DNA of 50,382 bases from Asterionella formosa (Eukaryota): assembly GCA_002256025.1 (NCBI GenBank), contig NKIB01013850.1, positions 1 to 50,382 of the forward strand, read 5' to 3'. How positions within the stretch are numbered: the stretch's first letter is position 1; each line of letters begins with the position of its first letter. The notes beneath the pieces were generated by a model. That model was not told where the DNA came from. It saw only the letters and a list, made by a program, of their open reading frames with translations, and searched no databases. This document shows, piece after piece, positions 7,554 through 38,555 of this stretch. The translations under genes and the position numbers were made by a program.

Positions 7554-8000
7554 NNNNNNNNNNNNNNNNNNNNNNNNNNNNNNNNNNNNNNNNNNNNNNN
7601 NNNNNNNNNNNNNNNNNNNNNNNNNNNNNNNNNNNNNNNNNNNNNNNNNNNNNNNNNNNNNNNNNNNNNNNNNNNNNNNNNNNNNNNNNNNNNNNNNNNN
7701 NNNNNNNNNNNNNNNNNNNNNNNNNNNNNNNNNNNNNNNNNNNNNNNNNNNNNNNNNNNNNNNNNNNNNNNNNNNNNNNNNNNNNNNNNNNNNNNNNNNN
7801 NNNNNNNNNNNNNNNNNNNNNNNNNNNNNNNNNNNNNNNNNNNNNNNNNNNNNNNNNNNNNNNNNNNNNNNNNNNNNNNNNNNNNNNNNNNNNNNNNNNN
7901 NNNNNNNNNNNNNNNNNNNNNNNNNNNNNNNNNNNNNNNNNNNNNNNNNNNNNNNNNNNNNNNNNNNNNNNNNNNNNNNNNNNNNNNNNNNNNNNNNNNN
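7554..8000. other. Assembly gap (N run)
   Basis: Continuous Ns. Confidence 1.
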
Positions 8001-11184: not shown

Positions 11185-11192
11185 CCTATGAG

Positions 11193-11621
11193 NNNNNNNN
11201 NNNNNNNNNNNNNNNNNNNNNNNNNNNNNNNNNNNNNNNNNNNNNNNNNNNNNNNNNNNNNNNNNNNNNNNNNNNNNNNNNNNNNNNNNNNNNNNNNNNN
11301 NNNNNNNNNNNNNNNNNNNNNNNNNNNNNNNNNNNNNNNNNNNNNNNNNNNNNNNNNNNNNNNNNNNNNNNNNNNNNNNNNNNNNNNNNNNNNNNNNNNN
11401 NNNNNNNNNNNNNNNNNNNNNNNNNNNNNNNNNNNNNNNNNNNNNNNNNNNNNNNNNNNNNNNNNNNNNNNNNNNNNNNNNNNNNNNNNNNNNNNNNNNN
11501 NNNNNNNNNNNNNNNNNNNNNNNNNNNNNNNNNNNNNNNNNNNNNNNNNNNNNNNNNNNNNNNNNNNNNNNNNNNNNNNNNNNNNNNNNNNNNNNNNNNN
11601 NNNNNNNNNNNNNNNNNNNNN
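11193..11621. other. Assembly gap (N run)
   Basis: Continuous Ns. Confidence 1.
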
Positions 11622-13273
11622 AGTGACCTGCAATGTCTACCAACCTATATATATACCGGTAGTTTCATTACATTCAAACGTGGCAGAACGAACATTTATT
11701 CTTGCAAATGTATCTATTTATCGTGCGAAATGTGCGATGCATGATTGTAAAATACATGAAACTGGAATCGATGAAATATGAAAACAAGTGTATTTAGACA
11801 AAGACGAATATAAGTACAGATATACATATATGTTCATGAATCCATCATACCGGTAACTCTCGTCTAATGATGCCTGGTACCTGGTACTCTGTCGAACAAA
11901 TGAATTGTTTATGTGTGTTAACATATGTGTACATGTACATATTCGTTGTACTGTACTATATGGCTAAAAGCTACTCGCACCATCACAACATTGATTTCAA
12001 TCATTCAATGATATACTGGTATACGTACACCATAAAATTGTAGATAGAGATGTCACATGTACTCTATGATTCTTCGCAACGACTCAAATGACAGACCAAC
12101 TACTGAGTCCTGTTGCCTTTATAAAACTCTACAATGTACTGGGTACTGTAGTCGTTCACAGCGGCTGGCTGGATCTCAGTCTAGACCATGCCGAAATAAC
12201 AAAAATCTCCATGAATAATGAGAACGACGCTTTGCTATTGGGTACATTTATCCATCACGACATCAAAAAATACATTCGTAAATTTATTTAAAATAAAACT
12301 TATATTGACAATGAGAATTGAAGTTGCAAGAATGTAATTTATTGAAGCACAATTCAAAAAGATGAGATTTGACACTTTCGCAGTAGCTGTGCAATGACAA
12401 TGACTAAAAATGGCATGATCAATTGAAGGGAAAGATATGAAAAAATCTATTTATCAAGTGAGAATTACCTACTGACTTTTATGAATTTGCCCAGGAAATT
12501 TTAGTGGTCACAAACCCTCCTGATGGTCAGCTAATGGCTTTTGTGCCTAAACGACCACAGAATGCTGAACAAATCGCACATTGAATATGTCTCATGTCAG
12601 TCATCACCTGGATATCATTTTTTATCACAGGATAATTACTACAGTCTGGTGGATACTGCCACTTTTGTAATGTGGGATATTTTAATTGCATACCAGTAGC
12701 AGGATTCAATATTTCCCATGCATGATATCACCAAACTATGCATACTACTGAATGAATCAATATTTGTTCATTTCAAACCTTTTCATAGGTTGAAGGTTTT
12801 CCCTTGCTGATGTGGGAGAGTGAGCGAACCGGCTCGACAACACACACCTATAGGGTTAGGGTTACATAGATTATATCAAAACTCTATCAGGAGAGAACTG
12901 GACTATCGGTAACACTTATTGAATACTTTGATGTCAACCTAGGAGGACAAGTTGCATTCAAGGATTAGGTAAAAAGTTGATATATTCAACAATTGCTATA
13001 CTCCGTGGTACTTCTAGTTAGATGCTTCACCAGTTACCTATGGGTTGTGTACGTCTGCAACGTACCCTGGTACCAGGTACCAGGTACCATGCTCTAAAAG
13101 CACTCTACACCCTACACTGGATACCGGTAAATGGCAATGAGTAGATACCGGTGTGTGAATGAAATGCCAACAAAATATTTCTCTTACGCTCATTGCTCCT
13201 CTCCTCCCGTTCGAAATAGATACCGTATAGCATTTGAAGGGTGTGTGTGGGTGGGTGTACATGTCACGCCCAA

Positions 13274-15379
13274 ATGTCATTTGTACTATCGATAGTACAC
13301 TCTGGAGCAATAAGAAGAAAGGGACTAAACGCCGCAGTAGTCATTTTATTCCGAAATATCGCAGTGATGTTTTTATTGAGTAGTATTACATCAAGTCGGG
13401 CATCGTCCGCTTGGACGAGTGGTTGTTGCAGTACTGTTGCTTTCTTGGCACCCTCGATAGGATGGAAGTATTCAAGAACACCAGGAACCTGCACTACTGT
13501 CCTTTGGCGTCAACTGGCGTCGTCCAAGGAAACTACAACTACAAATCAGGACAACATCGACAAGCGCATCTTTCGAGGGGATTGGAGATCATCCGAATTT
13601 GCAACGCATGTAGTTGCAGGAACAGATGCACTAACTATTGCTCATGCCATTTCAACTGTTTTAGAAATACCTCATAGTCATCATGTAGACAAGGACGAAT
13701 GGATGAAAACCACCAGCACTACTCCAGGGGAAGAACTTTCCGCACAGCAACTGCTACACTTGGGTGCTGTATGGTTCCTACCCAATGGTGCGAAAACAGA
13801 GTCGACCAAACCAACACGCTTGAATTTATCTAATGCAACCCAACTATTGAATGAGGGTGACTATGTTCGTATCCATCCAAATCCAAGACGATTTACAGAT
13901 GTGTACAAGTACACTTGGGATGCATTCCATCCCACTTTACTTGCAACGAATGGTAGCAGTAGTACTACTACTACTACTAACGAAAAACCTGGAGTACTGA
14001 TTGATAACAAATCACCACACTTTCTCCTCATTGACAAGCCTGCCAATGTCCCAGTACACTCCACAGTGGACAATGCAATTGAAAATGTAGTGCATTTGAT
14101 TCAAAATACCAGAAATGGGACCTACACATCTACACCACAACGATTGGATCAAAATACATCAGGATTGTTTGTTGTGGCAACATCCAAGCTATTTGCTGCC
14201 TACTATGCACTATTATTACGAAAGAAAACAATTTTTCATTTGGACAAGGAGAATGAAATGGAAGAACGAACTGTATATAAGAAATACAAATGCTTAGTCT
14301 GCTTATTACAAGATCCACTGGACACAACATGGACCATGGCATCAGCAGTGGCACAATTAAAGTCATATGATCTACTTCGACATTATTTGGAACCATCCAT
14401 ACGAGCTCCAAAGCATTACGCCAAGGAACCACCAACACCACAACCACAACCACCGAATGATGACAACACCATGAATTCACCAATGTGGGCAGAATCATTA
14501 ATGAAGATTGTTCATGTGGGTGATCCATGTGCGTTGGTTGCGACACCAGGAGAAACACTGGCATTAGATCTCTACAAAACCAAAGAGACTATGCCACCTC
14601 ACTTGGTCGGAGTCGTGGAAGTGCAAGTCGAATTGTTGACTGGACGGACACATCAAATTCGTGGACAGTTGTCTGCGGAAGGATTTCCACTTGTGGGTGA
14701 TGCCCAATATGGCGGTGCAACACCAGTATTGGGATATACAGATTTTCAACCGTCAGAACAATTGGCATTGCAATGCTGTGAATTGGAATTTTTGGATCCA
14801 GATATTGTGTTGAACAAATGGGGAGAGGAAATAATGACACCTTCTGATCGCTGGAATAAATACAGATTAGAGACCGGTTGGTGGACTCCATTTATTGAAA
14901 AGTATCATCAATCCAAAGGTAGTAGTGAAACAACCTCATCTGCTGATCTCCAACGAGCCATGGACATGGGCAAGTCGTCCATGGAAACATCCAGTATAAT
15001 GTCAGCTACTTGTATCGACACGACACTTCTTCCTCCAATGATATCATTGGCTCCAGGGAGTCACAAATACGTTCTTATCAAAGCCAAGACGAATGATGGC
15101 AAGGAATTTTGGTTTGTCAAGAGTGCAAGTCCTTGTACATGTGGTGGACCATATCATGTAGATGTTGCCAAGGATCTAGTGGATTCGTTAGAATCTCGAG
15201 GGTTCCAAGTACAAGTTACAGGTGGGGGTCGGATTATGTATGATGAATCTAAACTAAATGCCACTGTATTTGGCTTTTCGTATGGATTTGGTCGAGGAGA
15301 TCACATCAAGGCCGCAACATTGATATCAGAGAACTCTGACATTTCGGCAACATATGATCTATCTACAGATCTTTATTGA
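13274..15379 (+). CDS. RluA/RluD-family pseudouridine synthase fused to a C-terminal Janus/Ocnus (PHPT1-like phosphohistidine phosphatase) domain
   Basis: Synthase motifs IDKPANVPVH, QRLDQNTSGL (catalytic Asp) and LLTGRTHQIRGQLSAEGFPLVGDAQYG. The C-terminus has HKYVLIK, PYHVDV, GGGRI and VFGFSYGFGRGDH. Start is ATG 13274 or 13367; the N-terminus looks like an organellar presequence. Confidence 0.9.
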   Translation: MSFVLSIVHSGAIRRKGLNAAVVILFRNIAVMFLLSSITSSRASSAWTSGCCSTVAFLAPSIGWKYSRTPGTCTTVLWRQLASSKETTTTNQDNIDKRIFRGDWRSSEFATHVVAGTDALTIAHAISTVLEIPHSHHVDKDEWMKTTSTTPGEELSAQQLLHLGAVWFLPNGAKTESTKPTRLNLSNATQLLNEGDYVRIHPNPRRFTDVYKYTWDAFHPTLLATNGSSSTTTTTNEKPGVLIDNKSPHFLLIDKPANVPVHSTVDNAIENVVHLIQNTRNGTYTSTPQRLDQNTSGLFVVATSKLFAAYYALLLRKKTIFHLDKENEMEERTVYKKYKCLVCLLQDPLDTTWTMASAVAQLKSYDLLRHYLEPSIRAPKHYAKEPPTPQPQPPNDDNTMNSPMWAESLMKIVHVGDPCALVATPGETLALDLYKTKETMPPHLVGVVEVQVELLTGRTHQIRGQLSAEGFPLVGDAQYGGATPVLGYTDFQPSEQLALQCCELEFLDPDIVLNKWGEEIMTPSDRWNKYRLETGWWTPFIEKYHQSKGSSETTSSADLQRAMDMGKSSMETSSIMSATCIDTTLLPPMISLAPGSHKYVLIKAKTNDGKEFWFVKSASPCTCGGPYHVDVAKDLVDSLESRGFQVQVTGGGRIMYDESKLNATVFGFSYGFGRGDHIKAATLISENSDISATYDLSTDLY

Positions 15380-16659: not shown

Positions 16660-17973
16660 ATGGCAGCTCGACGACGAATGGTAGTTGCCATGTCAGGAGG
16701 AGTCGATTCCTCCGTCGCTGCCTATTTGCTTCAGCAAGACCAACGAACGTCCCTCGTCGGCGGACTGTTCATGTCCAATTGGGAGTCTCACGATGAAGAC
16801 GACAACGGCAGCAACGCCGTCAGTTGCAGTGAAGCCGACTACAGAGATGCACAACGCACTTGTGATCGCTTGCAGCTGCCCTTGCATTACGCCTCCTTTG
16901 CCAAGGACTATTGGACGCGAGTCTTTGAACCCCTCGTGGATGCCATTGCCACCGGAACGTCGACGCCCAATCCAGATGTGCTGTGCAATGCCTGCATTAA
17001 GTTCGGCGCCATGAAGGAACATGTAAGAGACGTTTTGGGAGTGGAATGGATCGCCACGGGGCACTACGCACGACTCTACCACAAAACAGGTAGGCCACCG
17101 CCGGGCATTCACGAAGACTCGTGGTTGTGGCAATGGAGTGAGTCGTCGCCACTGCTGCTGGCCGGAGTTGACCAGACCAAGGATCAATCATACTTTCTAG
17201 CTACAGTGGATGGTGCGGCGTTGGAGAATGTGGAATTTCCTCTGGGGAACTACTACAAGACAACACAAGCCCAGCCTTCCTCGCTACCGACCGTTCGACA
17301 GTTGGCAAAAAGAGTCAACCTTCCCACTGCATCCAAACGAGAATCCATGGGTATTTGTTTTGTTGGGAAGCGAAATTTTCCAGAATTTATTTCTCAATAT
17401 TTACCTGAATTGCCTCCACCTGGTGTGTTTGTGAATGTTGAAAACGGTCAAGTACTGGGTCCTCATAAGGGGTCATGGAACTATACCATTGGACAGGGGG
17501 CCAAAATTGGTGGAGCCCATAAAAAGTGGTTTGTAGTGGGTCGGACGTTGGACAATGAAGTTGTGGTGTGTCCTGGTACCCATCATGCATCTTTGTTTGC
17601 CAATCAAGTTACGATTCGAGATATGCATTGGCTGGGAAATACTGTCCCACCTCCCTTGCTACAAGATGGTGCCTTGCGTGTCTTGTGCCGACCACGACAT
17701 TTACAACCCTTGGTCCCTGGAACACTGCGATGGAAGAATAATAATAATGAACACGGTGATACCTATACTATTGACTTTGATGGTCCAGTCCGTGCGTTAA
17801 CACCAGGACAAGTCGCCGTGTTGTACATTGGAAACGTTTGTTTAGGTGGAGGTCCTATTTGGAAAGCTGGTCCAAGTTATCATGAAATGGATTTGGAATT
17901 ACCAATTTCTTTGTATTCATCAGGACATAATGATTTGTCAGTAATCCAACGAGAATTGGAGTTCATGTCATGA
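16660..17973 (+). CDS. mnmA: tRNA-specific 2-thiouridylase MnmA/TRMU (probably mitochondrial)
   Basis: AMSGGVDSSVAA PP-loop, TPNPDVLCNACIKFG, IATGHYAR, KDQSYFL, ESMGICFVGKRNF, YTIGQ and RALTPGQ. Confidence 0.96.
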   Translation: MAARRRMVVAMSGGVDSSVAAYLLQQDQRTSLVGGLFMSNWESHDEDDNGSNAVSCSEADYRDAQRTCDRLQLPLHYASFAKDYWTRVFEPLVDAIATGTSTPNPDVLCNACIKFGAMKEHVRDVLGVEWIATGHYARLYHKTGRPPPGIHEDSWLWQWSESSPLLLAGVDQTKDQSYFLATVDGAALENVEFPLGNYYKTTQAQPSSLPTVRQLAKRVNLPTASKRESMGICFVGKRNFPEFISQYLPELPPPGVFVNVENGQVLGPHKGSWNYTIGQGAKIGGAHKKWFVVGRTLDNEVVVCPGTHHASLFANQVTIRDMHWLGNTVPPPLLQDGALRVLCRPRHLQPLVPGTLRWKNNNNEHGDTYTIDFDGPVRALTPGQVAVLYIGNVCLGGGPIWKAGPSYHEMDLELPISLYSSGHNDLSVIQRELEFMS

Positions 17974-18954: not shown

Positions 18955-19450
18955 GCTTTCTACTATATATATTTATATATATATAGTATGTGTGTTCTTA
19001 GAGAATGGGTGATGGTATATGTGCGATGGAGATATACTGCTACTACTACTTTTATTAAAAGTAGTAGACAACTGATGGTTCCACTGAGTGACAACAACAG
19101 AAGAAAGGCAATGGCTGATCTGATGATTTGTGCTAAAATAAAGCAAGGAATGAATTGTTGAATATACCGGTAGTACCGGTAAGAGCTCCAATTCTTGATC
19201 ATGCTGCATGTTATACCGTAGTCGGAGTGAAGACATCAGAGCAAAGATCCATGTGTAACACAAGCACATCAACCACACGTATACAAGGAAGGATACTGGT
19301 ATCTATTGTTAGGTAGACTCAGGTACAGTACAGTACAATAATTACTGGTAGTACGGTATGAAAAAGAGCAGTGATACTCATGTGAACAATATGATACATA
19401 ATTCTTGTATCATGTAGATAAAACCGTCAGGAGTCCTCGTATGTATGCAG

Positions 19451-20134
19451 NNNNNNNNNNNNNNNNNNNNNNNNNNNNNNNNNNNNNNNNNNNNNNNNNN
19501 NNNNNNNNNNNNNNNNNNNNNNNNNNNNNNNNNNNNNNNNNNNNNNNNNNNNNNNNNNNNNNNNNNNNNNNNNNNNNNNNNNNNNNNNNNNNNNNNNNNN
19601 NNNNNNNNNNNNNNNNNNNNNNNNNNNNNNNNNNNNNNNNNNNNNNNNNNNNNNNNNNNNNNNNNNNNNNNNNNNNNNNNNNNNNNNNNNNNNNNNNNNN
19701 NNNNNNNNNNNNNNNNNNNNNNNNNNNNNNNNNNNNNNNNNNNNNNNNNNNNNNNNNNNNNNNNNNNNNNNNNNNNNNNNNNNNNNNNNNNNNNNNNNNN
19801 NNNNNNNNNNNNNNNNNNNNNNNNNNNNNNNNNNNNNNNNNNNNNNNNNNNNNNNNNNNNNNNNNNNNNNNNNNNNNNNNNNNNNNNNNNNNNNNNNNNN
19901 NNNNNNNNNNNNNNNNNNNNNNNNNNNNNNNNNNNNNNNNNNNNNNNNNNNNNNNNNNNNNNNNNNNNNNNNNNNNNNNNNNNNNNNNNNNNNNNNNNNN
20001 NNNNNNNNNNNNNNNNNNNNNNNNNNNNNNNNNNNNNNNNNNNNNNNNNNNNNNNNNNNNNNNNNNNNNNNNNNNNNNNNNNNNNNNNNNNNNNNNNNNN
20101 NNNNNNNNNNNNNNNNNNNNNNNNNNNNNNNNNN
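19451..20134. other. Assembly gap (N run)
   Basis: Continuous Ns. Confidence 1.
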
Positions 20135-20184
20135 AAGCAAGCATTCCGTATCATCCCATCATAAAACCAAGAAACAGCAACAAG

Positions 20185-21843
20185 ATGGTGAAACGACAAA
20201 AGGAAAAGCAATACCAATCAGCGAGTGAATTCAAATCCAATTCTCAGCTTCGAGCTGGTACGAATAGTAGTAGTACTAATGCACAACAACGTGTGCTTCC
20301 ATTGGACTGTTGCGCCTTGACGTTGGTCAAGATTCAAGATCCTGTTTGTACACCCAATGGTGTCATGTTTGAAACTACAGCATTGCTTCCATTCCTACGC
20401 CAACATCATACAGATCCGGTCACTGGGACACCCATGAGTAGCAAGGACGTTATACTATTGCATATTGACAAAAATGATCATGGTGAGTGGCAATGTCCAA
20501 TCCTTACCAAGGTCTTGTCAGATCATATCAAGGTCGTTGCTGTCAAGGAAAGGAACGGGAATGGCGCCAACGTGTATTCTTGGGAAGCCTACCATGAACT
20601 CAATGTCAAAACAAAGAACTATTGCGATTTAATTACTGGTGACAAGTTTGATCCCAAACATGATGTTATACTTTTAAATAACCCACAGGACCCTGACTTT
20701 CAAAAATTACGTGATGTCAATCAGTTTTATCACATGAAACATGGACAAGAATTGCAAAGCACGACAAAGGAATCGACATCCAACAATATTCAGCATTCTA
20801 TAACGGCCAAGAGAGTTATGGAAAAGATACAACAACAGAAATCAACGACCATCAAAACGAAAACAACTACTACTCCTACAGTAACAACATCCACACATAC
20901 GCCACAGCTGTACACGGCGGAAGCTGTCCTTGGTCATTCTGTGACATCCATTCTAACATCATCATCCTTGACTTGTACCTCTTCTGATTCCATGGGACAC
21001 AACATGCCACGAACTGCAACCTTGGAAGAAATACTACAAGCTCAATTCAGGGTTATGAAACATCTCAAGAAGAAAGGCCTTTGTACCATTCATACCAATA
21101 TGGGACCTATTGGGATTGAATTGCATTGTGATATTGTTCCACGAACATGCACTAATTTTTTAGGGCTTGCGGAACGTGGAAAATATAACAACAGTTCGTT
21201 TCATCGATTGATCCCAACCTTTATGATTCAAGGTGGGAAAGGTACTATTGATGATGATGATACTTCCTTGTGGGATCATGCCTTTTGCGATGAATTTGAT
21301 GATCGATTGTCTCATGATTCAGAAGGAATACTAAGTATGGCGAATTCAGGACCTGGAACCAACAAACGACAATTCTTCATTACATTTCAACCAACCCCAC
21401 ATTTAAATCGAAAACACACAATCTTTGGCCGTGTCATTCAGGGAATCAGTGTATTGCAGGAAATGAAACAAGTGCCCACTGACAAGAAGGATCGACCAAT
21501 TCACTCAATCATTATTAATTCCATTGAGGTTCTAGTCAATCCTGCGGAGGAAGCGGCGACATTGGAAAAGGTACGAATTGAAGGACGAATGAAGGAATTA
21601 CGAGAGAAGGAATTGACACTATTGAACAATGCACTTGGAGGAAATAGCAGCAAAATCAAAACATCTGTAACAACAAATGATCAAGACTGTCCAATGGTTG
21701 TTCCTTCCAAGCCAGCTGTTGGAAAGTATCTGAACATGAATAAGAAACGACGGAACGATGAGACCATTGAAGGCATTCCAGAAATTTCTCGCTTGAAGCC
21801 ACCACCAAAAAAGACAACATTTGGAAACTTTAGTGAATGGTAA
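20185..21843 (+). CDS. PPIL2: U-box/cyclophilin PPIL2 (Cyp60), spliceosome-associated
   Basis: Start MVKRQKEKQYQSASEF; U-box LPLDCCALTL..PVCTPNG..DPVTG; cyclophilin ELHCDIVPRTCTNF, FHRLIPTFMIQGG, LSMANSGPGTNKRQFFIT and KHTIFGRVI; family-typical C-terminus FGNFSEW. Confidence 0.93.
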   Translation: MVKRQKEKQYQSASEFKSNSQLRAGTNSSSTNAQQRVLPLDCCALTLVKIQDPVCTPNGVMFETTALLPFLRQHHTDPVTGTPMSSKDVILLHIDKNDHGEWQCPILTKVLSDHIKVVAVKERNGNGANVYSWEAYHELNVKTKNYCDLITGDKFDPKHDVILLNNPQDPDFQKLRDVNQFYHMKHGQELQSTTKESTSNNIQHSITAKRVMEKIQQQKSTTIKTKTTTTPTVTTSTHTPQLYTAEAVLGHSVTSILTSSSLTCTSSDSMGHNMPRTATLEEILQAQFRVMKHLKKKGLCTIHTNMGPIGIELHCDIVPRTCTNFLGLAERGKYNNSSFHRLIPTFMIQGGKGTIDDDDTSLWDHAFCDEFDDRLSHDSEGILSMANSGPGTNKRQFFITFQPTPHLNRKHTIFGRVIQGISVLQEMKQVPTDKKDRPIHSIIINSIEVLVNPAEEAATLEKVRIEGRMKELREKELTLLNNALGGNSSKIKTSVTTNDQDCPMVVPSKPAVGKYLNMNKKRRNDETIEGIPEISRLKPPPKKTTFGNFSEW

Positions 21844-23766: not shown

Positions 23767-26700
23767 ATGTTCCGAGTTTCTCGCGTGGTGGCGTCTCGCA
23801 AATTCCTCCTGTCGGTCCCTCGCGCCTGCTTTTCAAATTCCTCCTTCGCCGAACCAGAGCCAACCCTATTTTTTCCCACCGACGCGACAAACAAACATGG
23901 ACAACTTCGTAGTGATATTCGAACCATGGGATCTATATTGGGAAAAATCATTCAGGACCAAAATGGAGAAGAAATCTTTGCCAAAGTGGAAACGATGCGC
24001 GCCTTGGCCAAGGTGAGCACTAGCTAGACTTGTTCGTGTTACTTACTTGTCCTAAATACTAGAGCGCATTTGATTTTTTACTAACATATTGATTGTGCTT
24101 GCCATTGCTTTCTTTTGATTGCTTGGTTCCCATGATAATCAGAACTGGAGGGAACTAGGGGCTGGTAGAGGCACCGAGCACGTCCAAGCCGACGAGGCCT
24201 TTCAAGAACTCGCCTCCTTTGCTTCCTCCATGAATAATTCGGAACTGTTTTGGGTCAGCCGTGCCTTTACGCACTTTCTTGCCATTGCCAATGCCGCTGA
24301 AAGTCACCATCGCGGAAGAATCATTGCCACCGAAGACCCGACGTACAAAGACGACATTCATGCCCTCTCTCACAAGAACGATTCATGTGGCGGTATTCTA
24401 CCGTTGCTGCTTCAAGACAAACATTCCAAACAGGATCTATTCAACGCACTCACTACTCAGCAGACAGAGCTTGTCTTGACTGCACATCCCACCGAAGTCA
24501 ATCGCAGGACTATTCTACAGAAGCAACGTCGTGTCCAACAACTCTTAACCAAGGCCGATGCCATTCGGGGCAATGCTCGCACAACATTGTATCAACAACG
24601 TGAACTCAATGATGCTCTCGAACGGGAAATTGCTTCCCTGTGGCAATCGGATGAAGTTGCACGGAGCAAACCATCCCCTCAAGAAGAAGCCGAACGTGGA
24701 ACACTTGTGGTGGAAACGGTCTTGTGGGAGGCAGTTCCAATGTTCTTGCGCAAGTTAAATGCCACCATGAAGGCACATTTGGACCAGGCATTGCCGCTCG
24801 CGGCGGCTCCTATCAAATTTGCTTCTTGGATGGGAGGAGATCGAGATGGAAATCCTAATGTTACTGAAAATGTCACACGTGAAGTGTGCTTGACCAATCG
24901 ACTCAAGGCTGCGACGTTGTTTCGACGTGATTTGTTACAGCTACAAGGGGAATTGAGTATTACCAAGTGCTCGGATGAACTGCGGGAAAAATTATCGACT
25001 GATTCAGCGCGAGAACCCTACAGAAAGTTTTTGGCTCCCATCATTGATCGTCTTGCCTTGACGATCGAATGGGCACAACAAGAATTGGACTATTTGCATA
25101 ACGGACAGACGACGTTATCCTCCCCCATGGAAGGAGTATATTTGAACAAGCAAGACTTGATGGACGACTTGTTGTTGATACATAGATCACTCTGTGACAC
25201 TGGAAATGAAATGACGGCGGATGGGTTCTTGGTGGACATTATTCGTAATCTCTCGGCGTTCGGATTGACCTTGGTGCCGTTGGATGTTCGTCAAGAAAGT
25301 GATCGTCATGCTGAAGCCTTGGATGCTATTACGCGGTACCTTGGATTGGGATCCTACGATCAATGGGACGAGTCGACTAAAATCAATTGGTTGATCCAGC
25401 AGTTGGCGTCCAAGCGTCCATTGTTACGGTCAGGATCTTGGAAGGAAAATACTGTGCTGTTCTCTAGTACTGCGGTTGACACGTTAGAGACATTTCGTAT
25501 GATTGCCGACCAGTACGAGGGCAGTTTGGGGGCATATGTTATATCGCAAGCCACCAGTGCAAGTGATGTTTTGGCGGTCTTGTTGCTGCAGAGAGATGCC
25601 GGAGTGAAGAAGCCTCTTCGTGTGGTACCGCTCTTTGAAACCTTGGATGATCTCAAGGGTGCCGCGGCGACGATGGAAGCTCTCTTTTCTCTTCCTGGAT
25701 ACATGGGAAGTATTGCTGGGAAACAAGAAGTCATGATTGGATACTCCGACTCTGCCAAGGATGCTGGACGACTTGCGGCTAGCTGGGCACAGTACGAGAC
25801 GCAAGAACAACTAGCTAAAGTGGCCAAGAAGTACAATGTCGAATTGACTTTTTTCCATGGCAAGGGTGGAACAGTCGGTCGTGGTGGGAACCCTGCCACT
25901 TTCAAGGCGATTCTGGCACATGCGCCAGACACGATCCATGGTCGATTCCGTGTCACGGAACAAGGTGAAATGATTACTCGTAACTTTGGCTATGCCGACC
26001 GTGCCGAGCGTACGTTGGATATCTATACCGCAGCTCTATTGGCTGAGAAGTTTACCAAGAGGCCAAGTCCAACGCCAGAATGGCGTGATATGATGGGCAA
26101 GCTGTCTGACCTCAGTTGTGCTGCGTACCGACGCATTGTAAGGGAAGACCCTCGCTTTGTCCCATACTTCCGCTCTGCCACTCCTGAATTGGAACTTGCG
26201 AGCCTTAACATTGGATCGCGTCCTTCAAAACGCAAGCCTGGTGGAGGGGTAGAAAGTCTTCGTGCCATTCCTTGGATCTTTGCCTGGACTCAGACGCGTC
26301 TGAATTTGCCAGTCTGGTTGGGAGTTGGTACCGCGTTGAGTGAAGTCTTGGCTGGGAAAGATGCAGATACGCTTCGGAACATGTATCGTGACTTTGGATC
26401 GTTCAAAACTACGATTGATTTGGTCGAGATGGTTTTGTCCAAGTCAGAACCATCGATTGCCAAGCACTATGACAATATGTTGGTTTCTGATCCAAAAGCT
26501 CAAGAGCTTGGAGAGGAAGTTCGATCGATGCATGCTAGGACGGAACATTATGTTCTCGACTTGACCGATCACGAGACGTTGACCGATAGCAACCCTCTCT
26601 TAAGCCGTGCCTTGCAAGTCCGCAACCCCTATGTTGATTGCTTGAATGTCCTTCAAGCTGAGACTTTGAAGAGGATTAGAGCTGATGCGGATGGAGAAGC

Positions 26701-26767
26701 TGAGCTCAAAGATGCTTTGATGACTACCATTACTGGTATTGCCAATGGAATGGGTAATACTGGATAG
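23767..26767 (+). CDS. ppc: Phosphoenolpyruvate carboxylase with mitochondrial-type presequence; exons 23767-24012 and 24143-26767 (about 956 aa)
   Basis: VLTAHPTEV, SWMGGDRDGNP, PLFETLDDL, QEVMIGYSDSAKDAG, FHGKGGTVGRGG, RVTEQGE, LRAIPWIFAWTQ and C-terminal GMGNTG. Phase-0 GT..AG intron at 24013-24142. Confidence 0.97.
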
Positions 26768-30852: not shown

Positions 30853-32340
30853 ATGCCCATTACACCACGATTCCATCTCTCCCAAACCGAGACCCATATA
30901 ACCATTGACATTCATGTTCCTCACGTTCGTGTGAATGCTCAATCGGTAGAAATTTGGATCGAATCTGAACAAGGGACGGTTCACTTTTCGTCTCCTCCCT
31001 ACTTGCTCCTCTTGACTTTTCCCGATCAGTCCTTTGCGGCGACAGAAGAGGGCGAAACTGCCAAATATGACCCAATGAGAGAGGGCGGTATGGTTACAAT
31101 GGAATTGGAAAAGGAATTTCCAAACACCTATTGGCCTAATTTAGATCTTGTAGGGCAATTTACAGTCGGACAAGGTCCAACTCCTGCTAGTCCTAGCCCT
31201 AGCACTGGACCAACAAGAGTGCTACTATCAGGACTTGATGACGACAATGACAGTCGACCACGATATGGATTTGCCAACATGTTTGTTCAGTTCTTCACTG
31301 ACCTGGTCCGTGATGGTATGGCATCCGAAATGTTACAATTAAGTACTCCTGATGCAACTCCTGAAGAACAACGGCGAATACTACGATGGACTTTCGAACA
31401 AGAATCATTCCATCCGGATCGGTATTTAGAAGATGTTGATGTTACAGAAGATTACATTTATCAATGTGCCATGGAATTGGTACCGTTTTACAGGAAGGAG
31501 GAGGGCAATGATGATGATGACATTGTGATGCAAAAGTTGACACAGGAGTTTAAGAATTTAGCAACAATACCCAAAGAGACAGAAACAAGAATCATCCATT
31601 ACGACTACTTTACAGACGCAGAATCCATGCAACTGGCATCCATTGCCTATCCCATGTTACCTGATAGCACGATCACTACCAACCACCAAACAAAGCAGCA
31701 ACTCTTGTTGGGTCTACTGGATATTTTATATGCATTTGTCTATGATCACTTGGTCACTCAGGGAGACCCCACAGTAGAGTCATCATGGAACATTTCTACC
31801 TTGAGTTCCACTCTTAGTTGGTTGGATACCTTTCATGACATGAATGACATTGTGTCCGCATCGTTGCGGCGGACCTTAATATTTCCGTACTTACGGAATT
31901 ATGACTTTGCGTTGTACTGTTGGAATCAAATCTATTTGCTTGTATCGCAAGGGCGGCGGAGTGTCATTCGAGCACTTTTAAAAGTACGGGCTATACTAGA
32001 ACAAAGTGAATTTCATTATTTGGGGAACAAACTATACATTGATCCATACCTTTCATGGCTACAGAAACAACATGAACAAGGGGGAGTAAGTGACGAGGAT
32101 CTGCAGCAATTGGTCCAACAACTACAGGTGGCATTGGATCAAGTAACAAAGTCGAGTCTGGGATTGAACTTGACCGAGTTGGAAGATGAATTTCGCGGAT
32201 ATCAAGAAGAAAATCTAAATGATGAAGCATCAGAACCTGACGATGATGAGGATGACGATGATATTGACTATGACGATGAGGACAAGCCAGATCCACCAAG
32301 AGATGGTCCTCGGAGACCGTTGATTGAAGAGATTACATAA
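30853..32340 (+). CDS. SHQ1: SHQ1, H/ACA RNP assembly chaperone
   Basis: N-terminal CS domain ITPRFHLSQ..PYLLLLTFP; YGFAN, FHPDRYLED, ESSWNISTLSSTLSW, RRTLIFPYLRN, LNLTELE and C-terminal PLIEEI. Confidence 0.92.
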   Translation: MPITPRFHLSQTETHITIDIHVPHVRVNAQSVEIWIESEQGTVHFSSPPYLLLLTFPDQSFAATEEGETAKYDPMREGGMVTMELEKEFPNTYWPNLDLVGQFTVGQGPTPASPSPSTGPTRVLLSGLDDDNDSRPRYGFANMFVQFFTDLVRDGMASEMLQLSTPDATPEEQRRILRWTFEQESFHPDRYLEDVDVTEDYIYQCAMELVPFYRKEEGNDDDDIVMQKLTQEFKNLATIPKETETRIIHYDYFTDAESMQLASIAYPMLPDSTITTNHQTKQQLLLGLLDILYAFVYDHLVTQGDPTVESSWNISTLSSTLSWLDTFHDMNDIVSASLRRTLIFPYLRNYDFALYCWNQIYLLVSQGRRSVIRALLKVRAILEQSEFHYLGNKLYIDPYLSWLQKQHEQGGVSDEDLQQLVQQLQVALDQVTKSSLGLNLTELEDEFRGYQEENLNDEASEPDDDEDDDDIDYDDEDKPDPPRDGPRRPLIEEIT

Positions 32341-32566
32341 CTTTTAGGTCACTAGAGTATATTCTATTGCCGGTACAATTTATATTAGAGAGCTATAGAA
32401 AATAATCAAAATGTTCTTTGTTTGATGCCGTGCTAAATTTCATGTCAATGAACTGCGGTCTGTTTCTATGTATGTAGAGTAAACATAAGTATAAAATATA
32501 TATGCATGTATCAGATAGTACTATTGATCATTATTTACATATCCCTAACCCTATATAGCGCAAGGG

Positions 32567-35548
32567 ATGTGTCAGCCATCTAAAAAAATGGCGAAGAAAT
32601 TTTCTATCCCATCATTGTTGTCGCTTATATTTTTAAGTATGAAAGAAAATAATGATATGAGCGGGTCCAGAAACAACAACTTCAACCATCGTACTACCAC
32701 CGGTGGTAGAAGTATGCAATCTGTGAAACCTAACAATGATACTGTTGGTGCTGCTGCATCCAACATGAAACAAAGACAATCAATTCTTGTCCTTCATGGC
32801 AATCGTCAAACGGGTCAATTATTGTTGAATCGAATGGACAAGCTGAGAAAAAAGTTACAAAGTAGGGGATTGACACTCATTGCTCCCGATGCACCGCATT
32901 CATGTCATAACGATACTACTACTAGTAGTAGCACTAATGATGGGACAACGACAAACATCACAATTATGAGACAATGGTGGCATACTACAGCTACGGCCAC
33001 AAATGGACACCACGACGGACTAGAAGAATCATTGACAATGATACAACAGTTATGGAATACTCAAAGTCATAACTTTGTTGGAATTTTGGGATTTTCCATG
33101 GGAGCTCGACTTGCTCATTTCATAGCACTACTTCATCAACAAAATATCAACATCAACAGCAACTTTTTATTTCAAGGATTGCAATTTGTAATAATGGTGG
33201 CTGGGTATGATGCTCCATTACCATTACCCCTTTTTATACAAAGCAACGACGTGGTGGTTGCAACACCAACATTGCATGTATGGGGTGAAACCGATCAACT
33301 CATTGCACCAGCAAATAGTGAATCAGTTATGAAATATTATCAAGACCCACAATCACACATACATGATGGGGGTCATCATGTACCAATGCGTGCTGCCAAT
33401 ATACAAGCCTATCTTCATTTTATTGATACATCTTTGATGAAGGATAATAACAATAGTACTAGTGCCAGTACTTGTAATATTCATATGGACGAGGATGGAG
33501 CCATACAACTACAACTGCACCGAGCAGAAAAACCAGAAACGACATCATGTTGTGGTTTGCCAGATGACGAATGCCAAATGGCCCAACAAGACGAAATTGA
33601 AGCACTTTCTGCCATTTTTCCAGACGAATTAACTCTTCTTTCAAGTGAAAAGGACATGATCTACGAATTTCCAATTTCATACCAAATTGCAATACCATCC
33701 TCCTCGATAGGTAAATGGCCTCCTCATCCATTATCCTTGAAAGTTACATATACAATCAAGTATCCAGTTGAAAGTTTGCCACTAATGGAATTGATTCATA
33801 CCAACAATATGATGGAATTTGGATCCAATCACATGGCAGCTTGTCACAGAGTCATGCATGACGCAGCTCAAGTTGGTATGCCAAGTATATTAGCATGTGT
33901 CTATGCTATTCGAGAGTTTTTCGAATCTGGTATCATGGAAACTCTTCCTGTTGATGAAGATTTGACACCAAACGTGATCAAGGAAGAGACAAATAATCCA
34001 AATAACCCATTGCATGGTTCCATTCTATCTGCCACTGCAGAGAGAATAAGTATATGCAACCTTCAAGGGCTTCAGATTGCGCAACAAGTGCTCAAGCAGC
34101 ATACGTCTGTTTTCAACAGCCTCCCTGAAAGTATCAAGAAGGGGGGAATATGGAATTATACGATTGGCTTGGTGGGCAAACCATCTGCCGGAAAATCAAC
34201 CTTTTTCAATGCCGCAACTGCATTTGCCCGACAACGTGATGATAGGGAAAATGTTCTTGGTGGAGCAACGATGGCCCCTCATCCATTTACCACCATTGAT
34301 CCTAATATTGGATTTTGCTTTGTACCAGCTCCCCCAGGGTCATGTCCAGAAGATGACGCCGATCCTGGAACTATGATGAAGATTGGATGCACTCATGGTC
34401 GTGATCCTCAAGGGCGACGGTTGATTCCTGTCCTACTCAAGGATGTGGCTGGATTAGTACCGGGAGCATATCAAGGTCGAGGGAGAGGAAACAAGTTTCT
34501 CAATGACCTGACCGATGCCGATGTGTTGATTCATGTGGTGGATGCCAGTGGGACAGCTGACACGGAAGGCAATGATGTGGGAATGGCGGAAGCCAATGGA
34601 TCCCATCCTTTGGAGGATCTGGCTTGGATTCGTAACGAACTTATTGAATGGGTGTTTACGAATCTCATGCACAAGTGGGACACCATCAAGAGACGTGGAC
34701 GAGGCAAACTGTCGGATATGTTTAGCGGCTACAAGCAAAGTCAGACTATATTGTGGGATGTCTTGTACGCTGTTGAGAAGCATCTGGATATGAATGAACA
34801 GCGCGATCATGCATTGGATCATTTGGCGGAATGGGATGAAGGTGACGTGCGTCGACTTGTAAGTGCATTTCTTGGTGTTCGATTCCCCATGGCATTGGCA
34901 CTGAACAAAGCCGATCTGCCTCCAGCCAAGTTGTTCATTGATGATGTGCGGAATGCTCTTCCCATTCATGGTGCTCTTGTAGGTGTACCTTTATCAGCGA
35001 GAAGTGAAATGACATTTGTTCGCACACATGTGGATCCAACAATTGCAAAAGCAAGCGAATCAAGAACAATAAGTCCACCATTTGGAGTTTGGGAATGCCT
35101 CCAATCATCACTGTCTTTGCGCGAACCAGTGTTGGTATTTCCTGTGAATGATATGTTGACATATGCTCCATTGCCTGGCTTGACCAGGACAGCCATGGAA
35201 GATTCCTCCCTTCCGAATGTTGGTATGATTTCCTGCCTCCAGGCATCGGGTGGATCTGCTCCCACATTGTGGAATGATGGTGCATACGATTGCTCAAGTG
35301 CAACCTCGCAATATCTGTTGCGAGATGTGCTACTTATGAAACCTGGATCCACGGTCGAAGATGTATTTATATCACTGAAACGATTGGGTGCCCTTGGTGG
35401 CGAATTTGTTCGAGCAGAAGGCGCCAGGAGTATTGGAGAAAAGTCCAAGCTGGTTCCCAAGAATGAAGTGATTGGTAAAGCAAACCGCATTTTGAAAATC
35501 ATGACAACGAAGCGAAACAATTGGCAATCGAAACATGTTGTTTCATAA
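32567..35548 (+). CDS. Fusion of FSH1/OVCA2 serine hydrolase, RWD domain and OBG-family (Ygr210c-like) GTPase
   Basis: FSH1: ILVLHGNRQTG, GILGFSMGA, TLHVWGETD, HDGGHHVP. RWD: QQDEIEALSAIFPDE, KYPVESLP. GTPase: GLVGKPSAGKSTFFNAAT, PFTTIDPN, DVAGLVPGA..GRGNKFLNDL, NKAD and a TGS-like end. Single uninterrupted frame; the true ATG may be a later one (for example 32639 or 32765). Confidence 0.88.
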   Translation: MCQPSKKMAKKFSIPSLLSLIFLSMKENNDMSGSRNNNFNHRTTTGGRSMQSVKPNNDTVGAAASNMKQRQSILVLHGNRQTGQLLLNRMDKLRKKLQSRGLTLIAPDAPHSCHNDTTTSSSTNDGTTTNITIMRQWWHTTATATNGHHDGLEESLTMIQQLWNTQSHNFVGILGFSMGARLAHFIALLHQQNININSNFLFQGLQFVIMVAGYDAPLPLPLFIQSNDVVVATPTLHVWGETDQLIAPANSESVMKYYQDPQSHIHDGGHHVPMRAANIQAYLHFIDTSLMKDNNNSTSASTCNIHMDEDGAIQLQLHRAEKPETTSCCGLPDDECQMAQQDEIEALSAIFPDELTLLSSEKDMIYEFPISYQIAIPSSSIGKWPPHPLSLKVTYTIKYPVESLPLMELIHTNNMMEFGSNHMAACHRVMHDAAQVGMPSILACVYAIREFFESGIMETLPVDEDLTPNVIKEETNNPNNPLHGSILSATAERISICNLQGLQIAQQVLKQHTSVFNSLPESIKKGGIWNYTIGLVGKPSAGKSTFFNAATAFARQRDDRENVLGGATMAPHPFTTIDPNIGFCFVPAPPGSCPEDDADPGTMMKIGCTHGRDPQGRRLIPVLLKDVAGLVPGAYQGRGRGNKFLNDLTDADVLIHVVDASGTADTEGNDVGMAEANGSHPLEDLAWIRNELIEWVFTNLMHKWDTIKRRGRGKLSDMFSGYKQSQTILWDVLYAVEKHLDMNEQRDHALDHLAEWDEGDVRRLVSAFLGVRFPMALALNKADLPPAKLFIDDVRNALPIHGALVGVPLSARSEMTFVRTHVDPTIAKASESRTISPPFGVWECLQSSLSLREPVLVFPVNDMLTYAPLPGLTRTAMEDSSLPNVGMISCLQASGGSAPTLWNDGAYDCSSATSQYLLRDVLLMKPGSTVEDVFISLKRLGALGGEFVRAEGARSIGEKSKLVPKNEVIGKANRILKIMTTKRNNWQSKHVVS

Positions 35549-36955
35549 TGATGCGCAACAAAGATGATTGAATCACAGTCGTTTTAAGAGCACGGGGCGG
35601 TTGGATACCTGCAACGGGAGGGTATCTCGAGTACAGCAGAGAATATTACCGCCAAAGGAGAGTGTATAAGACAACCAGGCAATACATATTTCTACCTGTG
35701 AATTATCTCTCTAGCAGAATTCTAGTTATAGAGTGATTTTGCACTAATTGGGTACAAATTGCAGAAGTAGATCAGATTAAATATGCTCCGAACAATTTGA
35801 AGAGCACCTTGCTTCATCAAACTTTTCTTGACAACCCTCTGTCTAACTGTTATCCTGAAGTGTATTGTTTTGGTATCCCTCGACTAAACTGGTGGTTAGC
35901 TTATGATCTTGGCACATGGTAGCCCAGAACTCAATAATATGGGGTAGCTCACCAAAACCTTTTTGCCATGACACTACGGTAGAGCAAACAAGAACCCCGC
36001 TGCTCCACATATCATGATGGAGCGTTGAAATTTAGCTATTGTTTTCTTGGTTACCTCATCAGTGCATACGTATGATTTATGTGTAAGATTTCAGTAGGAG
36101 AGGTTACTTACATGAAACATGCTTTCTTGCTGGGTGAACTCTTCAGCCTTCCTTTAAGATTCCTGCATTGGAAACCCTATGCAAAAATCAAAAGCAATAT
36201 TGCTTACTGGTACATAGGATAATTGCCGAAATTTCCTTCAACTACTTATGGCTGGAACGTTTATGTGCTAATTGATTATGAATAACAATGATTCCGTTTG
36301 AAATAAAGGTAGATGTTTTCTTGTCTCATTGTACACGCACAGGTACCGGTAGTTGTTGTCCTACTGGGAATCTAAAATTCTTCACTTTGATTCAAATTAC
36401 GCGAGTGTCAGCCATGTGGATCTATGAGAAATTTTAAGCATTGTTGGGAACCCAATTGCATACAGCTTTTTTAAATGCAGAAACTGCAAGAAAGATCGAT
36501 TACCGGTATATCTTATCTTGGATAAAGAAGCTAAATATTTAGTTCAGCAAAATTACCGCAACTTGCAGGTACCTATACATTGACAAGACTACAATGTACC
36601 CGGTTGTCTACCTGTTACGGTACCAGGTACCGTACCCGTGGTAAAAGGGTACGTGGTACAAGGCAGCGTAGTCAAGACGTAGACTCGACTTCCTTACATG
36701 TCTCATGACATTTATGTCAACTCTATGTTAGACTACATACAGTATTATATCATGACAACACTGCCACATCGCCCCAAATACCAGAACTCTAGTACGAGAC
36801 GGACACACCACCTATCCAAGGCACGTGAAATCTAAACACATGATATGCCTGCTGTACTCTAGATACCAGTATTTGCTGCTCCTGTTGTTCAACAAAACAG
36901 AAATTACTGATACTCTCAAAACCTTGGCCTCGCATAAAAAAGATTCAGCACGAAA

Positions 36956-38555
36956 ATGAGTCCTAAATGGAGAGCTTTAGATCAATCCGTTCATTCTCGA
37001 TCGGTCGGGGACAGAATCTTGTCTCGCGTCGACAGTCTGAAGGAAGGTACTCAATGGCAACCAAATCCGAAGAATAAAATCGAATATCTTGAATGGGAAA
37101 ACTTAGAAGTTGACCGCCTCATTGGGAAAGGATCATTTTCGTTGGTTTACACGGTCCGCTTGAAGGAGGGACAACATTTTAATGATCGAGTCTATGCCCT
37201 GAAATCGCTTAGACCCCGGAAAGATGTTATCTCAGAAAAGTTTACCACTGGTGCCGTTGATTTGATTCTAGAAGCCAGCATTCTATCGAGTCTACACCAC
37301 CCAAACATTATCAGGCTTCATGCTATCAGGAAAGGCGATATTTCTGATAGTTATGCATTTGAAGAAGGAGGTTGCTTTCTCGTATTGGATCTACTAGCCT
37401 GTACCCTTGAATCAAAACTTGACTCATGGAGAGATCACCGATGTTTCCCATTTCATAACATGACATCCTCCAAGGACATGATAAGTCGTATAGAGAAAGT
37501 GGGTCTCGGGATTGCAAGAGGAATGGAATATTTACATTCTCTGAACATCATTTTCAGAGACTTAAAACCGCAAAATATTGGATTTGATGAAAATGATGTC
37601 GTGAAAATCTTTGACTTCGGTCTCGCTCGGGAGTATCACCCTAACTTTCCCTCCGAGAATAGGAGAAATGAAGGTACAAGACAGATGACTGGAAATTGTG
37701 GAACTCCAAGGTAAGCAAGATAAGAATAAATCTATACTCTTTGTTGTTGTCGAAGATTTATATGATACAACTCAACACTTCGACTAATTGCTTTTTATCA
37801 GATATATGGCCCCTGAAGTGGCTGAAATGCAAGATTATGGGTTAGGGTGCGATGTTTACTCGTTTTCGATTACAATGTGGGAAATCTGCACTTTAAAAAA
37901 GGCTTTTGATGATGTGAGGGATAATCTTGTCTTCCATGAAGACGTTGTTCGGGGTAGCAAGAGGCCATCAATCAAGAGCATTTCCTTGTCAGCGATTGGG
38001 GCTCTTCTGGAACAAGGCTGGGATAAAGACCCGAGCAAACGACCATCATTTTCCTCTGTTGTCAAGTCACTCGAAGAAGTGATCGATACTACCAGGGCAC
38101 CGGTTGCAAAACGGGTGCAACTGCGTTCTTCTCCAAATCAGTCAAGTGTGACTACTTCCACATTTCGAAATAGATTGAGAGCTACTTTCAGTCGAAGCAG
38201 TAGCACATCCGATATTCAGTTGAATAAAGCTTCAAACTTAAGCCGACTCAGCACAACTGATATTCAATGTAATGACGAGTCAGAGGGGCATTATTGCCGC
38301 ACCAGTGATGGACGAAGCTCTCGGTTTTTCCGCTCTCGCAAGCGAGACCAAAGTTGTATTCCTTCAAATGAATCAATCCAGCACGAAACGACACAAGAAA
38401 CCGCTGTGACAAGATTGATGCGTCCTTTCATGCGCCGATTGAGTACCACTGACATTTTGTATAATGACGAGTCAGAGAGGTCTAACCGTGAGGGAAGGAG
38501 CGTTCGGAGTCTTGATTCCTACAAACAACGGAGTCAGCTTTTGGATCTCAAATGA
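36956..38555 (+). CDS. TKL-like Ser/Thr protein kinase; exons 36956-37710 and 37802-38555 (502 aa)
   Basis: IGKGSFSLV, YALK, FRDLKPQNIGFD, DFGLARE, spliced GTPR|YMAPE, DVYSF and W..DPSKRPSF. 91-nt GT..AG intron. Confidence 0.93.

Follow-up and report, generated by a model that had tools for sequence, protein, structure and literature searches.

An FSH1-type serine hydrolase, an RWD domain and a Ygr210-type GTPase in a single diatom protein: a widespread eukaryotic fusion family with a possible function at Gcn1-bound ribosomes

The 50,382-nucleotide stretch of Asterionella formosa DNA analysed here (contig NKIB01013850.1 of GenBank assembly GCA_002256025.1, positions 1 to 50,382 of the forward strand; hereafter the window) carries on its + strand, at 32567..35548, a single open frame of 993 codons and a stop in the standard code. 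This is the longest open frame of a protein that joins an FSH1/OVCA2-type serine hydrolase, an RWD domain and an Obg-like GTPase in one chain, an arrangement that an initial annotation, made from the nucleotide letters, had already described as one frame without a stop or an obvious intron. With the base composition of the window, a stop is expected every ~17 codons and the probability of 993 stop-free codons is ~2e-27, a figure that speaks against an artefact in which two or three neighbouring genes are read through in one frame by chance. The single exon is matched by colinear RNA contigs without joints, and 32567..35548 is confirmed as a real gene, nuclear and free of introns, in a pennate diatom.

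The transcript evidence consists of Logan contigs from four RNA libraries (X1, X3, X4 and X6) of two studies, aligned to 32200-35900. A 3300-nt contig from X1 (cDNA) spans 32651-35900 and a 3615-nt contig from X3 (poly(A)) spans 32782-35900 and beyond, both with 0 gaps and no joints; each crosses the FSH1/RWD junction as well as the RWD/GTPase junction, and no intron is visible. X4 contributes one contig over 33422-35900, and X6 a contig over 32660-33840 together with shorter pieces. Transcripts that end or start between the domains, the pattern by which the initial annotation had proposed to recognize a false fusion, were looked for, and the X1 and X3 contigs instead run across both junctions. 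The spacer 5' of the gene is preceded by SHQ1 (30853-32340), whose own contigs end at 32327-32373, and the stretch 32374-32650 is uncovered in 4/4 runs. The silence of this spacer argues that the signal over the gene comes from RNA rather than carried-over DNA, and it shows that the assembly is not simply merging neighbouring genes.

The same contigs bear on the start codon. They begin at 32651 (X1), 32651 (X4) and 32660 (X6), and since the contigs of three runs start within 32651-32660 while 32374-32650 is uncovered, the ATG at 32567 probably lies outside the mRNA. The ATGs at 32567, 32588 and 32639 all fall 5' of the RNA cover; the first ATG within the RNA-covered region is that of Met31 (32657..32659, +), and later in-frame ATGs follow at 32714 (M50) and 32765 (M67). 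Met31 is the likeliest true start in place of 32567, a weak inference given that contigs cannot prove a 5' end. A shorter N-terminus fits the predicted disorder of residues 1-67 in an AlphaFold2 (AF2) model, where the predicted local distance difference test score (pLDDT) is <50, and it also fits the distant homologues, in which the FSH1 domain begins within the first ~1-70 residues and mostly within the first 25. From Met31 the protein would comprise ~960 aa, and a hydrophobic N-terminal stretch that could be mistaken for a targeting signal drops out.

The first module is an FSH1/OVCA2-type alpha/beta serine hydrolase (residues 67-281, 32765..33409, +), which matches Pfam PF03959 over profile positions 1-210 of 211 with an expectation value (E) of 2.5e-39 and 135.6 bits against a cut-off of 21. 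Human OVCA2 uses a Ser117-Asp179-His206 triad with its nucleophile in GFSQG (PMC7077851), and on the basis of this comparison and of the local motifs the catalytic triad is assigned to Ser177 (33095-33097, +, in GFSMG), Asp243 (33293-33295, +, in GETD) and His270 (33374-33376, +, in GGHHVP). All three residues are invariant in 71/71 sequences of the homologue alignment on which this and the later conservation counts are based. Yeast FSH1 (YHR049W, PDB entry 1ycd) is matched by a profile built from 28 diverse homologues and run against PDB sequences (E 2.8e-27) and by a Foldseek comparison of the model (E 1.8e-10, template modelling score, TM, 0.70); after it, the nearest folds are those of carboxylesterases, APT1/APT2 and LYPLAL1 (TM 0.65-0.69, with APT1/APT2 at ~0.67). 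The window protein thus has in common with FSH1 and OVCA2 the alpha/beta-hydrolase fold, a GFSxG nucleophile elbow and the Ser-Asp-His triad, whereas those enzymes stand alone (the 1ycd chain has 243 residues) and the present domain sits at the N-terminus of a ~960-aa protein. It is predicted to be an active serine esterase or thioesterase.

The second module is an RWD domain (residues 339-451, 33581..33919, +), matched by Pfam PF05773 over profile positions 2-111 of 112 (E 1.1e-12, 48.6 bits against a cut-off of 22.8). It is modelled as a helix at 334-350, four strands within 355-411 and two further helices at 420-436 and 441-453, with pLDDT mostly >90; helix 1 carries a conserved acidic motif, QQDEIEALSAIF. 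Tyr399-Pro400 (33761-33766), invariant in 71/71, belongs to what we take to be the Tyr-Pro core motif of RWD domains named YPxxxP. The best match of known structure is RWDD1 (2ebm), also called DFRP2, at E 5e-6 with the single sequence and 5e-18 with the profile; in the profile ranking it is followed by GCN2 entries 8t7t, 1ukx, 7e2k and 2yz0 (5e-16 to 1e-10), RNF25 (3e-9), RWDD3 (2e-7) and IMPACT (1e-3). GCN2, IMPACT, RNF14, RNF25 and RWDD1 are all RWD-domain proteins, and GCN1 has an RWD-binding domain (PMC10931611), which is bound by RWDD1/Gir2, GCN2, IMPACT and RNF14 (PMC8629797, PMC10931611); RNF25 works with RNF14 in a GCN1-dependent pathway (PMC8629797, PMC10931611). By profile, the nearest relatives of the window RWD domain are those of RWDD1/DFRP2 and GCN2, both Gcn1 binders, a ranking that is suggestive rather than discriminating.

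The third and largest module is a Ygr210/1wxq-type Obg-like G domain with a helical insert (residues 531-826, 34157..35044, +; PRK09602, 1wxq). Its motifs are G1 GKPSAGKST (537-545, 34175-34201), the G2 threonines Thr575/576 (34289-34294), G3 DVAGL (626-630, 34442-34456) and G4 NKAD (780-783, 34904-34915), all on the + strand. The P-loop Lys and Ser, the G2 threonines, the Asp and Gly of G3 and the Asn-Lys of G4 are invariant in 71/71; the G4 Asp783 is kept in 69/71 and replaced by Glu in two chytrids. The NKAD motif predicts specificity for GTP. Pfam MMR_HSR1 covers residues 532-663 above its cut-off (E 7.2e-11), and residues 531-826 align to the NCBIfam model PRK09602 ('YchF-related putative GTPase') with E 6e-58. 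The curated Ygr210 models themselves stay below cut-off, PF08438 (YGR210-like_G4) with 14.4 bits against 24.7 and PRK09602 with 196.6 against 387. Many of the distant orthologues that were scanned match PF08438 clearly, so the low scores here reflect divergence of the diatom lineage and an alignment to only part of a full-length archaeal model.

Placement of the G domain rests on relatives of known structure. The best of them is 1wxq, a GTP-binding protein of Pyrococcus horikoshii, found at E 4e-31 with the single sequence and by Foldseek at E 1.6e-18 with a TM of 0.71 over the target. In the profile search against the PDB, 1wxq scores 4e-74, YchF 8e-24 and Obg 3e-16, and no DRG entry appears among the best 60 of 113 PDB sequence matches. 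By fold, YchF/OLA1 chains reach TM 0.52-0.60, with ribosome-bound YchF (8kie) at 0.60, and Rbg1 (4a9a) falls well behind 1wxq and YchF at TM 0.49 and E 1.1e-5. As judged from sequence profile and predicted fold, the GTPase is of Ygr210/1wxq type and not YchF, Obg or DRG.

The chain ends in a helical and beta-grasp, TGS-like domain (residues 827-993, 35045..35545, +), seen in a separate AF2 model with pLDDT 84.5 and containing the conserved stretch MKPGSTVEDVF...GEFVRAE. In VIA-align comparisons this model resembles 1wxq residues 288-395 (Z 7.5), the DRG1 TGS domain 2eki (Z 7.4), the TGS domains of RelA, SpoT and ThrRS (Z 6.2-7.0) and Rbg2 in the Gcn1-disome structure 7nrc (Z 6.2), with many generic ubiquitin-like beta-grasp folds also at Z 6-7. 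No Pfam family matched residues 827-993, and Foldseek returned nothing at E <=0.001 for the C-terminal model, its best hit again being 1wxq at 1.2e-3. A TGS-like end is a reasonable but not proven assignment. Taken together, the domain calls of the initial annotation bear up well: its hydrolase motifs (GFSMG, GETD, GGHHVP) are all present as an intact triad, its middle segment scores as RWD with RWDD1/DFRP2 as nearest profile match, and its Ygr210c-like OBG GTPase with NKAD finds its nearest relative in 1wxq by both sequence and fold. The TGS-like end, which it had also named, finds support only in fold, through the 1wxq C-terminus and the DRG1 TGS domain, and no counterpart in Pfam.

The full AF2 model, built on the alignment of 71 homologues, has a mean pLDDT of 82.6 and a predicted TM score (pTM) of 0.62. 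It shows three well-ordered blocks with disordered linkers between them: linker 1, between hydrolase and RWD, at residues 299-329 (33461..33553, +; pLDDT <50) and linker 2 at residues 463-483 (33953..34015, +; pLDDT <50). An ordered helix precedes the G domain at residues 491-515 (34037..34111, +; mean pLDDTs of the 10-residue blocks covering it 96, 95 and 72); the 1wxq alignment begins at residue 533, and the helix has no aligned counterpart in 1wxq. Between RWD and GTPase (residues 440-535), no significant Pfam family was found, DFRP included, at E up to 10.

The fusion is by no means confined to this diatom. A search with the whole protein gave 324 matches, and the domain make-up of the best 120 was counted by hand from precomputed Pfam families: 110 of these 120 closest matches listed are diatom-type proteins with FSH1, RWD and GTPase. 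The other 10 are shorter (eight with RWD and GTPase, one with the GTPase alone, one with FSH1 and RWD). The named members of the 120 are pennate and centric diatoms, and several MMETSP transcripts among them are marked 'type:complete'. A phmmer search of 1.84 billion cluster representatives gave 3562 matches at E <=1e-3 and 315 at E <=1e-30; from the 150 matches listed, 57 representatives of at least 700 aa and 32-45% identity were chosen and scanned afresh with Pfam. FSH1, RWD and G domain were all called in 44 of the 57 and RWD with G domain in 2, and the remaining 11 have FSH1 and G domain separated by a ~200-residue spacer with no RWD call at E <=1e-5. Names obtained for ten of the 57 include Salpingoeca urceolata, Entosiphon sulcatum, Tribonema minus, Ichthyophonus hoferi and Aureoumbra lagunensis. 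When the search was seeded with a choanoflagellate protein, 94 of the 120 matches listed carried all three families by hand count. The taxa that it added are Salpingoeca rosetta, eight chytrid entries, the kinetoplastids Leishmania, Trypanosoma, Angomonas and Porcisia, four dinoflagellates, two Chlamydomonas species and Plasmodiophora. Forms that have RWD and GTPase but lack a hydrolase also came up, in the mollusc Batillaria and in Chrysoparadoxa. The named taxa belong to SAR (stramenopiles, alveolates and Rhizaria), Chloroplastida, Discoba, Holozoa and chytrid fungi; the fusion occurs across most eukaryotic groups and is no diatom or stramenopile peculiarity. Because the triad, the Tyr-Pro pair and the G motifs are invariant or nearly so in the 71 homologues, all three modules are under long-term purifying selection as active units.

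These distributions also bear on the read-through artefact. In its favour, ten of the 120 closest matches listed are without one or more of the three domains, and a search limited to shorter proteins (4663 matches, of which the best 120 were inspected) yielded many apparently stand-alone GTPase-like proteins. The 120 short matches listed are, however, diatom-like pieces of 200-520 aa, mostly from short contigs, and the best stand-alone candidate, P0328 (475 aa, 12 members), proved to be a truncated gene call in which residue 24 aligns to query residue 546, past the P-loop. A search of metagenome contigs for the source of P0328 found only an unrelated locus (L001) with 33% identity over 95 residues. 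The domain order recurs in independent genomes and transcriptomes of at least 5 major eukaryotic groups, and together with the stop-free frame and the single X1 and X3 contigs across both junctions this makes chance read-through barely credible. The Dikarya proteins YGR210C of budding yeast and C428.15 of S. pombe are presumably GTPase-only, with ~400 aa.

The initial annotation would have taken orthologues split into separate genes in all relatives as a refutation; in the surveys above the fusion is instead kept in many lineages. Its impression that the architecture is unfamiliar from model organisms turned out to be mistaken, since it is annotated in Chlamydomonas reinhardtii, Salpingoeca rosetta, Leishmania, Trypanosoma and chytrids. 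For Chlamydomonas reinhardtii Cre12.g538200, the three-domain architecture is given in a supplement legend (PMC12711092), and the Leishmania and Trypanosoma proteins are labelled 'Serine hydrolase (FSH1)/50S ribosome-binding GTPase' in databases. In the parts of the literature covered by the search, no functional study of the three-domain protein was found, and the architecture is named only in the PMC12711092 legend; a paper on the Gcn1 RWD-binding domain (PMC5438488) contains no mention of GTPase, hydrolase, domain architecture or Obg. The window protein is an ordinary orthologue of a widespread, database-annotated and experimentally unstudied FSH1-RWD-Ygr210-like family, whose members (Cre12.g538200, Salpingoeca rosetta PTSG_12765 and the Leishmania and Trypanosoma proteins, for example) have the same domains in the same order with the same triad and G motifs. 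Non-diatom members are 26-36% identical to the window protein, the diatom orthologues that were aligned 47-67%. Members differ in that the Chlamydomonas relatives are longer (1390 and 1519 aa), diatom proteins score weakly for PF08438, and in several members, kinetoplastid and other, the RWD domain has diverged too far for Pfam to call it.

A quick maximum-likelihood tree of 28 sequences, unrooted and with its deep branches unresolved, contains clades of diatoms, kinetoplastids, dinoflagellates and chytrids. The window protein groups with Fragilaria, Seminavis and Mayamaea with 98% support in the Shimodaira-Hasegawa-like approximate likelihood ratio test (SH-aLRT). Chytrids join Plasmodiophora and Tribonema (99% SH-aLRT) and not the choanoflagellates and the ichthyosporean, a placement for which old paralogy, transfer and an artefact of the tree are all conceivable.

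Turning to known systems, the Obg family comprises the subfamilies Obg, YchF/OLA1, Ygr210, Nog1 and DRG, and many of its members have a part in the regulation or biogenesis of ribosomes (PMC8629797). With the Ygr210 subfamily (PH0525, solved as 1wxq; YGR210C; C428.15) the window GTPase shares motifs G1-G4, the helical insertion and, by predicted fold, a C-terminal beta-grasp/TGS-like domain, and one diatom orthologue is even named after S. pombe C428.15 in one source. It differs in what precedes it: 1wxq has 397 residues and aligns to the GTPase part alone, whereas here the GTPase follows a hydrolase, an RWD domain and the additional ordered helix. A functional parallel lies in another subfamily, in the pair formed by DRG2/Rbg2 and DFRP2(RWDD1)/Gir2. 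An RWD domain lies at the N-terminus of DFRP2/Gir2, Gir2 binds Gcn1, and Rbg2-Gir2 is found on Gcn1-bound collided ribosomes (PMC8629797), as the initial annotation had recounted in agreement with that review. Both systems combine an Obg-family GTPase that bears a TGS or, here, TGS-like domain with an RWD domain, the window RWD being most like that of RWDD1 and the TGS-like end resembling those of DRG1 and Rbg2. DRG2 and DFRP2, however, are two polypeptides joined via the DFRP domain, through which and not through its RWD domain DFRP binds DRG; here the modules are covalently fused, no DFRP domain is detected, the GTPase is not a DRG (TM 0.49 for Rbg1 versus 0.71 for 1wxq), and a hydrolase is added. 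With no DFRP domain and a GTPase outside the DRG class, the analogy is functional and not homologous. The idea of a hard-wired RWD-GTPase pair, advanced from the outset, holds insofar as one transcript-backed frame encodes both, with a GTPase of 1wxq/YchF type rather than a DRG.

What such a protein does can at present be framed as a model, to which about an even chance is assigned. It would be a cytosolic three-module enzyme whose RWD domain docks on Gcn1's RWD-binding domain where ribosomes stall or collide, whose GTPase/TGS module engages the ribosome in the manner of YchF and Rbg1/Rbg2 and serves as a nucleotide-dependent switch, and whose flexibly tethered hydrolase then cleaves an ester or thioester near the ribosome. 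The covalent link would here take over the role that the DFRP domain plays in DRG2-DFRP2. The model draws on the likeness of the predicted GTPase fold to 1wxq and ribosome-bound YchF (8kie) and, more weakly, Rbg1, and on the clustering of yeast YGR210C with the translation machinery, where it seeds a network module enriched in eIF2B/eIF2 according to a table in PMC2233647. The initial annotation had arrived at a similar picture, that of a Gcn1/ribosome-directed GTPase carrying an esterase; the frame, the motifs and the RWDD1/GCN2-like RWD domain fit it, the analogy to DRG2-DFRP2 being functional only.

Several observations weigh against this model of a Gcn1-docked enzyme. The missing DFRP domain and the non-DRG character of the predicted GTPase have been mentioned. 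The RWD ranking is not sharp, in that RWDD3, which binds Ubc9 according to the title of a reference cited in PMC10931611, scores 2e-7 and the true Gcn1 binder IMPACT only 1e-3. The disordered linkers of the model give no indication of rigid coupling between hydrolase and GTPase. The yeast data come from high-throughput and computational clusters and are mutually discordant (eIF2B versus the small-subunit, SSU, processome). Finally, a Chlamydomonas strain, lf5-2, lacking the orthologue exists, as stated in the PMC12711092 legend, so the gene is not essential there.

A second explanation is that of a ribosome-biogenesis factor in which the GTPase would act on pre-ribosomes, the RWD domain would be a general adaptor unrelated to Gcn1 and the hydrolase would be accessory. 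YGR210C lies in an SSU-processome cluster with UTP proteins, BMS1 and others in a consensus map from tandem affinity purification and mass spectrometry (PMC1940025) and in a 'snoRNA binding' cluster (PMC4839750), which sits well with the part many Obg-family members play in ribosome regulation and biogenesis and, as the RWDD3-Ubc9 pair illustrates, with the binding of RWD domains to partners other than Gcn1. Yet the eIF2B/eIF2 module places the same protein elsewhere, the RWD profile here is closest to Gcn1-binding RWDs, no nucleolar targeting feature was seen, and the N-terminus is short and disordered. On balance a role in biogenesis is considered rather unlikely. The YGR210C mRNA is described in one literature passage as carrying a strongly acting AUG upstream open reading frame.

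The hydrolase invites a third explanation. OVCA2 and FSH1 are active esterases that favour long-chain alkyl esters in vitro, their biological role being unknown, and they share properties with acyl-protein thioesterases (PMC7077851). This preference, together with the predicted APT1/APT2-like fold, points to lipid-like and not ribosomal substrates, a further argument against the Gcn1-docked enzyme. The protein could then be a lipid or acyl-protein esterase under GTPase control that plays no direct part at the ribosome, its hydrolase doing the main work (deacylation or lysophospholipase-type chemistry, for example) and its RWD and GTPase modules being regulatory or localising; the structural neighbours of the module and the invariance of its triad across eukaryotes accord with such an enzyme. 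What this account leaves unexplained is the constant presence of an Obg-like/TGS GTPase and of an RWD domain resembling those of Gcn1 binders, and the Obg-like/TGS class is tied to ribosomes, with YchF on the 50S subunit (8kie) and Rbg1/Rbg2 on the 80S (7rr5, 7nrc). Nor does the Pfam scan reveal a membrane anchor or a lipid-binding domain, and this explanation is judged distinctly improbable.

A bolder form of the Gcn1-docked model can also be entertained. The protein might be an ancestral eukaryotic ribosome-rescue enzyme, a further Gcn1 client next to GCN2, Gir2/RWDD1, Yih1/IMPACT and RNF14, in which the GTPase would read the stall and FSH1 would cleave, for example, the ester of peptidyl- or aminoacyl-tRNA, with YGR210C and the FSH/OVCA2 hydrolases as separated remnants; this is regarded as a long shot. 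A chytrid variant of the family touches on it. In Chytriomyces hyalinus (entries P0304 and P0311) an extra N-terminal 2H cyclic-phosphodiesterase domain occupies residues 7-149 before the FSH1-RWD-GTPase portion (PF07823 CPDase at E 3e-18 and 9e-17; PF13563). Two assemblies agree on it, though a merged gene model may underlie it; the domain is suggestive of cyclic-phosphate chemistry on RNA or tRNA and would be in keeping with a rescue enzyme that acts on tRNA 3' ends.

Whichever of these explanations is correct, the value lies in the family-wide pattern and not in this single locus. No biological role is known for either of two conserved families, the Ygr210-type GTPases and the FSH1/OVCA2 hydrolases. 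The retention of the fusion, with all its catalytic residues, in lineages that range from diatoms and green algae to choanoflagellates, chytrids and kinetoplastids speaks for cooperation between the two activities. The RWD domain between them, with RWDD1 and GCN2 as its nearest matches, directs attention to the Gcn1/stalled-ribosome hub. The fusion offers a lead for two orphan families that is undiscussed in the literature searched, it suggests candidate partners for yeast Ygr210c and human OVCA2, and the hypothesis is accessible in Chlamydomonas, Phaeodactylum, Thalassiosira and Salpingoeca.

Some features of the transcripts and surroundings deserve mention. The RNA contigs run past the stop codon, those of X1 and X3 extending ~43 nt and ~496 nt beyond 35900, and 35549-36955 contains no open reading frame (ORF) of at least 80 aa; a long 3' untranslated region and an overlapping unannotated transcript are both possible. 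X6 contigs at 34015-34308 and 35226-35520 differ from the window by 14 and 8 substitutions, with 4- and 3-base insertions at 35269 and 35292, whereas the other runs match almost exactly; the differences indicate transcripts of a second allele, or of a closely related strain, in the X6 sample. The neighbours between 13274 and 43047 are unrelated nuclear genes. They include a pseudouridine synthase and Ocnus (13274-15379), an MnmA-like tRNA methyltransferase (16660-17973), Rtf2/cyclophilin (19441-21843), a phosphoenolpyruvate carboxylase (24230-26767) and a protein kinase represented by two ORFs (36956-37714 and 37806-38555), probably with one intron between them. Very AT-rich islands occur at 7001-8000, 11001-12000 and 19001-20000, with a GC fraction of 0.18-0.23 as against ~0.42 elsewhere, and within 19378-20164 the two strands carry overlapping ORFs of at least 150 aa, suggesting repeats of low complexity.

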